A DNA stretch of 64,000 nucleotides. Origin: Octopus vulgaris. Its lineage: Eukaryota. Positions within the stretch are counted from its first letter, which is position 1; each line of letters begins with the position of its first letter. Of the stretch, positions 20,045-61,718 are shown piece after piece. A program made the translations under genes and the position numbers. Location of the stretch: NCBI GenBank assembly GCA_951406725.2, contig OX597823.1:62558001-62622000 (forward strand). Direction: 5' to 3'. The notes below the pieces were generated by a model, which was not told the origin of the DNA, ran no database searches, and was given only the letters and a program-made list of their open reading frames with translations.

Positions 20045-20165
20045 TTTGTCAAAATATTTTCGTCGCTTTAAGACCGCGACCTGTTCACTGACAAAAATCC
20101 GTGCAGCACGGATTTTTGTCAGTGAACAGGTCGCGGTCTTAAAGCGACGAAAATATTTTGACAAA
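20045..20165. repeat. perfect 121-bp palindrome (60-bp arms, 1-nt loop)
   Basis: tttgtcaaaatattttcgtcgc...ccgtgc A gcacgg...gcgacgaaaatattttgacaaa. Confidence 0.97.
20115..20165 (+). ncRNA. type I minimal hammerhead ribozyme variant, G3-C8 core (mirror copy 20045-20095 on minus)
   Basis: tttgtca|GTGAACA g|gtcgc-ggtcttaaa-gcgac|GAAA atat T T|tgacaaa: 7-bp stem I, 5-bp stem II, palindromic stem III AATATT. Confidence 0.7.
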
Positions 20166-20229
20166 AGGCGGCGAGCTGGCAGAATCGTTAGCACGTCGGG
20201 CGAAATGCGTAGCCGTATTTCGTCTGCCG
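20166..20229 (+). mobile_element. 5' head of a tRNA-derived SINE split by a LINE insertion (remainder 25536-25972)
   Basis: Matches the head of the SINEs at 19849 and 26556. Confidence 0.85.
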
Positions 20230-20684
20230 CACGTGTGTTCGTGGTAAGAATTGCTGTTAATATTGTTAATAACTGTTGTTTCTTGTTAAACTGTTGAATA
20301 ACTTAACTGTTGGAGTTTTCAATTGAAAACACTTAGTGCTTGTGGTAGCACGCGTTGTTCATTCCCCTTTTGGGGGGAAGAATGTCGTCTAGCATGGAGC
20401 CTACCGTTGGAGCAGAAATACTTGTTTCTCCTGTTTAGAGGAGGAAAAACATGTCCGGCGAGGAGCCAACTACAGACAGGGAAATAAGGGTTTCCCCCGC
20501 TACAAGAAGGAATAGCAGAGTGGATAATATATTTGATTTTTTTGGAGATGTATCTGAGAGCTCGTCAGAACTTTCACCAGAAAAGTTTCCGACTTTGCCA
20601 GAGAACAAAGGCATTGTGTCGAAGTGAATAATTGATGTACCTAGCATCCAGATAGAACCAAAAAATGGAAAAAGAAGTTTTGCG

Positions 20685-21948
20685 TTGGCTGCTGGGGGTG
20701 GAACCCGGCTACTGTCGACGAATAAAAGCGACTTTATGAAATACAGCCAAATGATGAAAATAACTGACAACGGTGTGAAAATTGAACCTCCGCAAAAGTT
20801 ATTACAAGAAGAAAAGCAAAAAACAATAATTTTCAAAACATATTGTCTACAAAAAAGAAAAAATTGAAAGAATGTCAGAAGAGAAAATAGAAAAGTGCTT
20901 AAAGCCAATATGGGGCGACGTAGTTTATCTGAGAAGAGGCAAAAAAATCGGAACGGTGGAAGTAAGGTTCACCAATAAAGAAATAGCACACAAGAACTCA
21001 GTTGAAACGCTGAAAACGAACGACGTGGAGCTCATCCCCTATTATACGGGGATGAGGACGTCCAGAATAAAAATTACAAGGGTCCCGCCAGAAGTCGACC
21101 CAATGTGGTTGTTGGCGGCAGTCCTAATCAAAGAGGTAGAAAAGATTACTCTCCTCCAGGCTACCGCTACGGAAAACCCACGCTGGAATGATCAAACAAT
21201 TAATCTTCTCATTCAAGCGGACCCTAAAATAATTCAAGCAATTCCCGAGTCAATTGAGGTAGGGGAGGAGAGCATCGTGGTGTTTGTTGAGGGCCGAAAA
21301 CCTCGATGTTTTTTATGTGGTCAATTAGGCCACATTCGAAGGAACTGCAAGGAAAATGAAGAAGAGGAAGAAGAGGAGAAAAAAGACAAAGAGGAAGAAG
21401 ATAAAGAAGAAACAGATGAGAAAAAAACAACAAACAAAAGAAAAATACAACCAGCAACCCAGCCGAAAGCGGCGACTACTACAGAACAACGACCAAAAAA
21501 GACTGCCAGAAGAGAAAAAGAAGAAAAAGGCATAATAGCCGTATACACTAAAGATACTGAGCTCATGAGAGACATTCAACTGATAAAGACTGTAAAAAAA
21601 ATAGATAACCTTTCAGAGGAATTTATCAATTACGACATATATGAAGTCTCAAATAAGACTTATAGAATTCTACAAAGCAAATACAGAAAGACTGTATCTT
21701 CATTAAGATTAGATTTTAACAAGTCGATATTTCATGGATTACCAGCCCCGATCCCGCGAGAAAAGGAAAAGGTGGAGATTCCCCCTCCACCTGATAATTC
21801 TGTGTCGGTGGTGAGACGGGATTTTGACAAATCTATTTCCCAAAACCGTCTACCTCCGACCCTGGATCAAAAAAAGGTGGAGGGTCCCCCTCCACCGGAC
21901 AATCCTGTTTATACAGGTAAGTCATGTCTATTCACATTGGTTGTTTAA
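20685..21948 (+). pseudogene. LINE ORF1 (gag-like, CCHC zinc knuckle), frameshifted near 20870
   Basis: CFLCGQLGHIRRNC knuckle, E/K-rich segment, homologous to ORF 47070-48242. The true start may lie further upstream (~20382) with a stop. Confidence 0.85.
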
Positions 21949-60616: not shown

Positions 60617-60879
60617 ATATATGTATGTATATGTATATATATATATATATATATATATATATATATGTATATATGTATATATGTATATATGTATATATAT
60701 ATATATATATATATATATATATATATATATATATATATATATATATATGTAAAGCAAAAATTTAGATTCAAATGAATATGGTACTTAATTTAGATGCACC
60801 AGAATTTTGTATGGTGTTATCCATAAAAATCCGTGGGGTGATTATAATCAAAATAAGCAACAAGAATGACTCCGGTAAT

Positions 60880-60965
60880 TTGGTACGATCGTTTCGTACT
60901 ACATCATTTTATTAAATGTTGTAAGTATTACAACAGATTTAAAATGCTGAGTACTCATCAGCCAA
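60880..60965 (-). ncRNA. type I hammerhead, canonical core, with 49-nt structured stem-II extension
   Basis: ttgg|CTGATGA|gtact..49 nt..agtac|GAAAC gatc GTA|ccaa. Confidence 0.9.
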
Positions 60966-61632
60966 TTATTGAGGTTTTCCATTAATACAAAAATTTTCAT
61001 ATCAAGTGGCAACATTATAGAGAGTGTAGATATATAGACAAAGATGTGGATTTAAATTTTAAGAACATTTGAGGTAGTGGAGCCCATCAACTGACTGACT
61101 AAGATTTGGCTGTTCCAGACTACTGTAAGGTTGTGAGAGAAGTTGAGAGACAGCATTGTCACTACTATATTATTTCCTTTATTCTAACTTGTCAAAGTAC
61201 TTGGAACTTATAGACCAAAATGTTGTGTTGATGTGCATCGGGTTTGTAAGGTCTCTGTACTCTCTGTGAATGTGATTGTGACAACTTGAAATTGATCTAG
61301 TTCTCCTAACGCTGAATCTGTTCATCAAATAGTAGTAATTGGCATTTAGTAGTGACAATACTGTCTTCCACATAAATTCCTTATATGGAGCTCTGAAACC
61401 CCCTTTACCCCATTTCTATAATTAGAAAATGTTGATTGTGTCCTTCCACTTATTCTTCCCTCTCACAACCTTACAGTAGTCTGGAACAACCAAATCTTAG
61501 TCAGTCAGTTGATGGGCTCCACTACCTCAAAAGTTCTTAAAATTTAAATCCACATCTTTGTCTATATATCTACCTTCTCTATAATGTTGCCACATGATAT
61601 GGAAATTTTGTATTAATGGAAAACCTCTATAA

Positions 61633-61718
61633 TTGGCTGATGAGTACTCAGCATTTTAAATCTGTTGTAATACTTACAACATTTAATAAAATGATGTAGT
61701 ACGAAATGATCATGCCAA
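61633..61718 (+). ncRNA. second copy of that hammerhead with G at position 17 (likely inactive)
   Basis: ttgg|CTGATGA|gtact...agtac|GAAAT gatc ATG|ccaa. Confidence 0.75.

Follow-up and report, generated by a model that had tools for sequence, protein, structure and literature searches.

A 64,000-nucleotide stretch of the Octopus vulgaris genome (contig OX597823.1 of assembly GCA_951406725.2, positions 62,558,001 to 62,622,000 of the forward strand), which we call the window and number from its first letter, contains eleven hammerhead ribozyme motifs that belong to seven families, named A to G here. Very probably, these are minimal type I hammerheads that seven unrelated repeat families carry in their terminal repeats; D, E, and G are linked to Penelope-like element (PLE) coding sequences, the others are likely derived from Penelope elements, and the copies in the window are probably inert by-products of transposition. 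An initial examination of the letters alone (the sequence-only reading) had proposed these eleven motifs and described their stems as unrelated. All are found at the positions claimed, and the only sequence common to the seven families is microsatellite.

The minus-strand family A hammerhead (20045-20095) has a G3-C8 core and U17, and it occupies the left arm (20022-20110) of a 121-nt fold-back palindrome. Its plus-strand counterpart (20113-20167) has the same G3-C8 core, an extra G after A9, and stem III AATATT; this arm is interrupted near 20166 by another repeat, which we take to be a short interspersed nuclear element (SINE). Family B is represented by a solo minus-strand copy (27605-27773) resembling a pseudo-long terminal repeat (pLTR), in which the hammerhead (27707-27749) has a canonical core and a GUA cleavage site. 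An inverted tail piece at 27779-27879 lacks a hammerhead. The family C copy (hammerhead at 35783-35816, plus strand; extent approximately 35717-35913) is also solo, with no inverted arm. It is a strict minimal hammerhead with ACGU in place of a helix III, a C4 core, U17, and a loop II that is missing one base. The family D hammerhead (44500-44541, minus strand) combines a U3-A8 core and U17 with stem III AACCGGTT, and its inverted tail piece lies at 47114-47186.

Families E, F, and G each occur in the window as two hammerhead-bearing arms on opposite strands. The left arm of E (approximately 53134-55816) carries a minus-strand hammerhead (53240-53317) that is predicted to be dead because of a G5-to-A change, and the right arm (55791-59207) carries a plus-strand hammerhead (59093-59170) with a 51-nt stem/loop II, a GUA site, and a G-to-T change at the base of stem II. 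Nested within this right arm is a family F insertion (57564-58632) that consists of inverted 1.5-mers of a 357-nt unit. Its hammerheads (57779-57823, minus strand, and 58417-58461, plus strand) have a U3.G8 core and a GUC site. The minus-strand family G hammerhead (60880-60965) agrees with its family, has a structured 59-nt stem II and a GUA site, and sits in an arm that includes the tail. In the right arm, the plus-strand copy (61633-61718) has stem III ATGATCAT and G17. Two CpG-type changes in this stem III preserve the palindrome, a case of neutral decay that mimics covariation.

The inverted-repeat setting ascribed to almost all of these motifs therefore holds for A, E, F, and G, but the inverted pieces of B and D are tails without a hammerhead and C stands alone. 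Of the tiny (near-)palindromic stems III listed, the one at 35783 is a 4-nt ACGT, and the AACGTT given for it takes in A14 and H17. Measured against a type I core of N3-U4-G5-A6-N7-N8-A9 ... G12-A13-A14-A15.1 ... U16.1-H17 with pair 3-8 kept, families A, B, D, E, F, and G conform at the family level and C deviates by its C4. Four of the eleven window copies (53240, 59093, 61633, and 35783) are mutated relative to their own family, and two of these depart from the core consensus, 53240 by G5A and 61633 by G17.

Such short, degenerate motifs might arise by chance in AT-rich repeat DNA, and the strict descriptor used to count them was built after the motifs had been seen. This descriptor, which misses both E copies and the copy at 61633, matches the window eight times, compared with a mean of 0.05 (maximum 1) in 40 local dinucleotide shuffles and none in the reversed window. 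A relaxed descriptor leaves pair 3-8, the stem III palindrome, and N17 unconstrained. It finds eight matches in the window (0.27 in shuffles) and 21 (2.0 in shuffles) in a genome sample of 40 stretches of 10 kb taken at round coordinates elsewhere in the 2.8-Gb assembly (400 kb in all). A palindromic stem III occurs in 17 of these 21 matches, compared with 0.5 of the 2.0 in shuffles. Positions 3 and 8 are paired in all 17 palindromic matches (C-G in 11, G-C in four, and U-A in two), and none has G17. With the strict descriptor, the sample yields 19 matches in 16 of the 40 stretches, compared with 0.8 in shuffled and two in reversed sequence. Rfam finds no hammerhead here at its gathering score, which could be read in favor of chance: none is among the 150 of 240 matches listed for the window, none is reported at E<=10 in 57500-59200, and there are none in loci L221, L147, and L154. 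However, the features left free come out right, and the motifs are placed within PLE ends. The scan with free features thus refutes an origin by chance, to which we assign a negligible probability.

The same counts support the proposal that this genome hosts a very large and diverse hammerhead population, dozens of families strong, that standard annotation misses. Extrapolation of the sample gives about 10^5 motifs genome-wide (127,000, with an interval of 74,000-202,000 that is too narrow since inverted pairs cluster), or approximately one motif per 20-22 kb. The density in the window is about 2.6 times that of the sample (eight matches versus 3.0 expected, Poisson P=0.013 with inverted pairs counted as independent). 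The window is an ordinary stretch, slightly rich, and no special cluster. All seven families are dispersed repeats; a first look gave 257-1477 candidates for each, and 40 per family were scored. Exact patterns recover 4,666 matches for family C, 845 for one loop subfamily of A, and 183 for family F. A loose G3-C8 pattern matches 24,814 times, versus 11,597 times in a backwards control, and since approximately 45 of the first 100 matches listed belong to family A, this family has about 10^4 copies. Some twenty further hammerhead types occur in the sample and in flanking sequences (loci L181-L220 and the flanks of L001-L180). Several of them have stem II arms of 34-60 nt and several have C4 (e.g., L182, L184, L208, L216, L218, L219, L027, L064, and L109).

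Coding sequences tie three families directly to Penelope-like elements. The family D hammerhead lies approximately 660 nt downstream of the end of a 5'-truncated PLE open reading frame (ORF; 45200-47142, minus strand). The translation includes a reverse transcriptase (RT) domain with a DKG motif (RVT_1, E 1e-6), a Cys-rich linker between the RT and endonuclease (EN) regions, and a broken GIY-YIG-like region, and the link between hammerhead and ORF recurs at other loci. A C-terminal GIY-YIG fragment (55478-55816, minus strand) occupies the center of the family E inverted repeat. Pfam gives no match for this fragment, Atlas assigns it at 0.95 to clusters named GIY-YIG, and the family E ORF link is also present at L123. 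For family G, a GIY-YIG fragment is located upstream on the same strand in L167 and L180. Two other candidate links were rejected. In L042/L043, a TA run separates family B from the nearby RT, which represents an independent insertion. L222, where two family C copies are 3.2 kb apart, is a segmental duplicate across an assembly gap rather than a full-length element, and it contains no ORF.

The anatomy of the insertions extends this connection. In every family, copies share a fixed 3' end that lies 40-190 nt beyond the cut site and mostly runs into (TA)n, and five families have two such ends: approximately +90 and beyond +141 from the cut site in A, +105 and +180 in B, +114 and approximately +200 in D, +42 and beyond +120 in E, and +41 and beyond +120 in G. 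Truncation at the 5' end is typical, and an inverted fragment of the element itself is often attached to the truncated end. An inverted family piece is present within 1.5 kb at 23/30 loci for A, 22/25 for B, 10/25 for D, 12/25 for E, 20/25 for F, and 15/25 for G. A tail, 5' truncation with an inverted copy, and a bias for microsatellite targets constitute the PLE insertion anatomy in the portions of Craig 2021 available to us, and the octopus families match it, with TA targets. PMC4209133 describes the same architecture. PLE-type ends are clear in A, B, D, E, and G and likely in F, while C displays only the TA targets and the 5' truncation. A Penelope origin, proposed for nearly all of the motifs, is consequently best established by ORFs for D, E, and G, is indicated by the ends for A, B, and F, and has the least evidence for C.

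The 5' ends of A and B copies cluster at small palindromes that lie approximately 20-30 nt upstream of the core (a position that the A query favored by one base), which suggests fold-back priming at these ends. At two of 30 A loci, L008 and L024, the copy extends farther upstream. This additional sequence, rich in microsatellites, has an end resembling a 3' splice site, with a branch-point-like motif and a pyrimidine tract with an AG exactly where most A copies start. The junction is possibly a PLE intron boundary and is reminiscent of the Drosophila virilis intron, described in the available text of PMC4209133, that terminates at helix I.

Several observations weigh against this reading of the seven families. 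Neither 105 loci from families A, B, C, and F nor L222 yielded a linked ORF, and family C has a single 3' end and an inverted piece at just one of 25 loci. The loci analyzed are the best-scoring matches, so the end statistics are biased toward copies that cover the whole motif. Covariation within families is weak, since the copies are young or in neutral decay. Only two of the seven isolated motifs (A and G) fold better than shuffles, and minimum free energy is uninformative for the other five. In favor of the reading, compensatory changes in the stems occur between related families. E differs from L077 by one compensatory change in stem I (G-C to A-U), and G differs from L208 on both sides of three of four stem I pairs with the pairing kept. 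The structured extension of the G stem II (a 59-nt arm, compared with 51 nt in E) is also conserved in L208. This comparison involves few sequences and no formal statistic, and a three-way alignment misplaces L054, so that G is compared with L208 only.

A mechanism that accommodates these observations can be proposed. By analogy with the Poseidon element PAc of Anolis carolinensis (Frangieh 2024, PMC11167929), the RT of the element would begin at two internal sites a short way downstream of a hammerhead that is left uncleaved. It would usually stop after 150-300 nt and leave mostly short stubs that bear a hammerhead. Such short products would account for the large excess of hammerheads over ORFs. 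The inverted arm would then arise when the 5' end folds back or the template is switched there. The two start sites that give the tail, the AT-rich targets, and the uncleaved RNA template are shared with PAc, as far as the accessible text of that study goes, although they were shown in vitro there and are deduced here from the positions of ends. PAc also differs in that element D has a Cys-rich RT-EN linker, a trait that Craig 2021, in the part available, ascribes to Neptune/Nematis elements and not to Poseidon. The ribozyme itself would act in the tandem RNA of the element as a dimer formed through the palindromic stem III, and the element protein would probably assist. Cleavage is expected solely in this setting because the monomeric minimal hammerhead of Schistosoma mansoni does not cleave (PMC4209133, available portion) and the anole PLE hammerhead requires protein and has no RNA-seq ends at its site (PMC11167929, available portion). 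Predicted stem III duplexes range from -0.2 to -10.1 kcal/mol, with -0.2 for A and -9.8 for the 8-bp duplex of F. Tandem copies that could dimerize and that resemble retrozymes occur in family F and in a family A array of 30 units.

Whether the families with altered cores could cleave at all must be considered separately. Family A has G3-C8 in 97 of the 100 copies listed and C3-G8 in none, family D has U3-A8, and family F always has U3, its partner being A8 in 74 of the 100 copies listed and G8 in the other 26. The C4 core of family C recurs in several unrelated families. Some family C copies in L212, L067, and L222 have U4 instead of C4, and CpG deamination of the C4pG5 dinucleotide would produce a canonical core. 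One could argue that families A and C are catalytically dead derivatives that were amplified because the hammerhead is dispensable for insertion. Hammerhead mutants do not affect insertion in vitro (PMC11167929, available portion), the predicted A duplex is weak, and U4C reduces activity in vitro. In addition, almost no copies begin at the cut site (0/60 in A, 0/48 in B, 0/38 in C, 1/31 in D, where the end is at +1, 0/37 in E, 1/53 in F, and 0/44 in G). No pile-up of 5' ends was found there in these best-scoring loci, which are a biased sample, and copies span an intact site. However, G3-C8 is a fixed state that takes two pair-preserving changes to reach. In the accessible text of PMC11167929, part of the cleavage activity returns in a double mutant engineered as C3G/G8C. 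C4 appears repeatedly in unrelated families, and the available part of PMC3088659, which also lists the U3-A8 pair seen in D as natural, reports U4C from a viroid, where the change cuts activity in vitro yet supports infectivity. On balance, dead variant cores seem unlikely to us, though not strongly so.

The tandem organization of two families raises a further possibility, namely that F and the array of A units represent active retrozymes of the non-LTR kind (lacking long terminal repeats), whose monomers are cut out by the hammerhead, circularized, and copied by a PLE RT into tandems. Among the first 100 matches listed, 12 places have direct repeats of the 357-nt F unit spaced 356-360 nt apart, including one trimer, and a second intact hammerhead in direct orientation is present at 6/25 loci. 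The monomer is strongly self-paired (z=-3.9), and the 8-bp stem III duplex predicted above also speaks for this possibility. F shares with retrozymes a non-coding unit that lies within the range of 150-450 nt, is repeated directly in tandem, and bears a type I hammerhead. The upstream partial unit bears the 3' half of a hammerhead that could complement a full one, with the inverted arm as a competitor. In L221 (494-5429), an array of 29.7 copies that are 97% identical follows an inverted tail piece, and each 166-nt unit has a G3-C8 hammerhead. This array could reflect either rolling-circle insertion or local expansion; its unit contains a TA target-like sequence and is unlike the array ends, which fits expansion at the DNA level. 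Partial tandems are also usual for PLE pLTRs, and eight of nine tested retrozyme dimers remained uncleaved in the available part of a preprint (bioRxiv 10.64898/2026.07.22.740005). Compared with the non-LTR retrozymes described in the accessible portions of PMC7229834 and this preprint, which derives tandem hammerhead units from pLTRs, the octopus repeats are alike in the self-paired direct tandems of F and the array of A. They are unlike them in having minimal rather than canonical hammerheads, mostly 1.5-3 units, and PLE-type inverted ends. We regard active retrozymes as possible, if somewhat doubtful. This proposal is compatible with a Penelope origin of the terminal repeats and concerns only F and one A array.

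The sequence-only reading also suggested that sense-oriented intronic copies could cut host pre-mRNA, and the window offers a case in which to evaluate this idea. A plus-strand host gene (34297-52839) with two exons encodes a type II membrane protein that resembles a glycosyltransferase. Its first exon (34297-34449, start approximate) begins translation at ATG 34438, contributes four codons, and ends at donor GT 34450. The second exon (49999-52839) continues the ORF to 51147 and has a weak FUT8_N_cat match below the cut-off. The 15.5-kb intron (34450-49998, acceptor AG 49998 in frame) contains C in sense and D in antisense orientation, with A and B upstream of the gene and E, F, and G downstream. 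Contigs that we guess to be RNA cover 49992-52839, a loose end from run X1 maps to 34423-34441, and X12 and X5 have similar unaligned segments of 153 letters. Diverged contigs of low depth over the PLE D region were left out of the evidence.

Cutting of host pre-mRNA by sense intronic copies, with consequences for gene expression or insertion bias, might be anticipated because C lies in sense orientation inside an intron of a spliced gene, because one motif per approximately 22 kb implies that many thousands should be intronic, and because retrozyme copies are depleted from Xenopus introns (bioRxiv 10.64898/2026.07.22.740005, a preprint, available portion). Yet C lacks a helix III, has both C4 and U17 as well as a deletion in its loop, stands without a partner on the strand, and is predicted to have a stem I pairing probability of approximately 0 in context. 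A spliced contig spans the intron, and the inactivity of the schistosome monomer and the protein dependence of the anole ribozyme also argue against cutting. The inverted pairs are on opposite strands, which precludes a dimer within one transcript; their predicted fold is a long double-stranded RNA hairpin. The sole sense intronic copy in the window is therefore solo, damaged, and spliced across, the suggestion is not borne out here, and cutting of host pre-mRNA in this window is unlikely. As a general effect of such copies, we consider it highly improbable.

Other repeats account for much of the window, which is rich in microsatellites and in fragments of LINEs (long interspersed nuclear elements) and PLEs. 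A LINE-like ORF1 with a zinc knuckle and an RT/endonuclease ORF occupy 20830-24962 (plus strand), a second LINE RT is at 28371-30530 (plus strand), and a second ORF1-like frame is at 47070-48245 (minus strand). A Pif1 helicase fragment at 30785-31336 (minus strand) is probably from a Helitron. The SINE-like repeat that breaks family A at 20166 also occurs at 25536-25837, as three to four 85-nt pieces in tandem. Long, near-perfect inverted repeats at 53204-59207, 57564-58632, 60849-61749, and 63638-64000 would yield double-stranded RNA if transcribed, and the last of these palindromes is within a LINE RT fragment.

A 2017 study by Lünse, Weinberg, and Breaker reportedly describes, to go by its title, small PLE-associated hammerhead variants that cleave as dimers. 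We found no literature report of a natural, fixed G3-C8 hammerhead, of C4 cores beyond the viroid change, of stem II arms of 51-59 nt or, beyond 235 Rfam matches in the giant squid annotation, of cephalopod hammerheads, with the proviso that this 2017 study was beyond our reach and may contain any of these. Both the kind of hammerhead and its abundance in thousands of copies and multiple families per genome are already in print. In its available portion, PMC4209133 (Cervera and De la Peña 2014) places minimal hammerheads in the pLTRs of metazoan Penelope-like elements, with approximately 2,000-9,000 motifs in several families per genome, and PMC7229834 counts >6,000 motifs in 16 families for a coral and, for the far larger axolotl genome, as many as 120,000 retrozyme copies. 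The octopus motifs resemble the set in PMC4209133 in being of type I topology with a short stem I, a stem III that is either palindromic or missing, an additional base following A9, U3-A8 and U3.G8 cores, and U17. Like that set, they also form many unrelated families in one genome, are mostly solo copies, and include opposite-strand pairs 100-700 bp apart. They differ in their estimated number (~10^5), and the earlier set includes no cephalopod as far as its accessible part goes. G3-C8, C4, and stem/loop II arms of 34-60 nt are likewise absent from the 56-sequence alignment in that part of the paper. The C3G/G8C change engineered in PAc is, in family A, the natural fixed state. A 2026 paper on Octopus vulgaris repeats reports 31 recently active Penelope-like families and does not mention ribozymes in its available portion. 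The octopus data add the scale, a natural G3-C8 family that is clean and high in copy number, the C4 and long stem II forms, and a retrozyme-like family.

A more ambitious picture would combine the densest animal ribozyme load yet described (approximately one per 20 kb) with a natural G3-C8 family that is catalytically active and numbers about 10^4 copies, recurrent C4, long structured stem II arms, circular retrozyme RNAs produced from tandems, and intact sense intronic copies that are counter-selected through host pre-mRNA cutting. We give this combination little credence as a whole. The role of the hammerhead in Penelope-like elements is unsettled, since cleavage in vitro is weak and the ribozyme was dispensable for insertion in one assay. 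The approximately 10^5 octopus copies in dozens of families constitute a natural data set for intronic strand bias and for the core changes that are tolerated, and family A is a natural, fixed counterpart of the G3-C8 swap that was found in print only as an engineered rescue. If G3-C8 were active and intronic copies were counter-selected, this genome would provide a genome-scale in vivo test of PLE hammerhead function.

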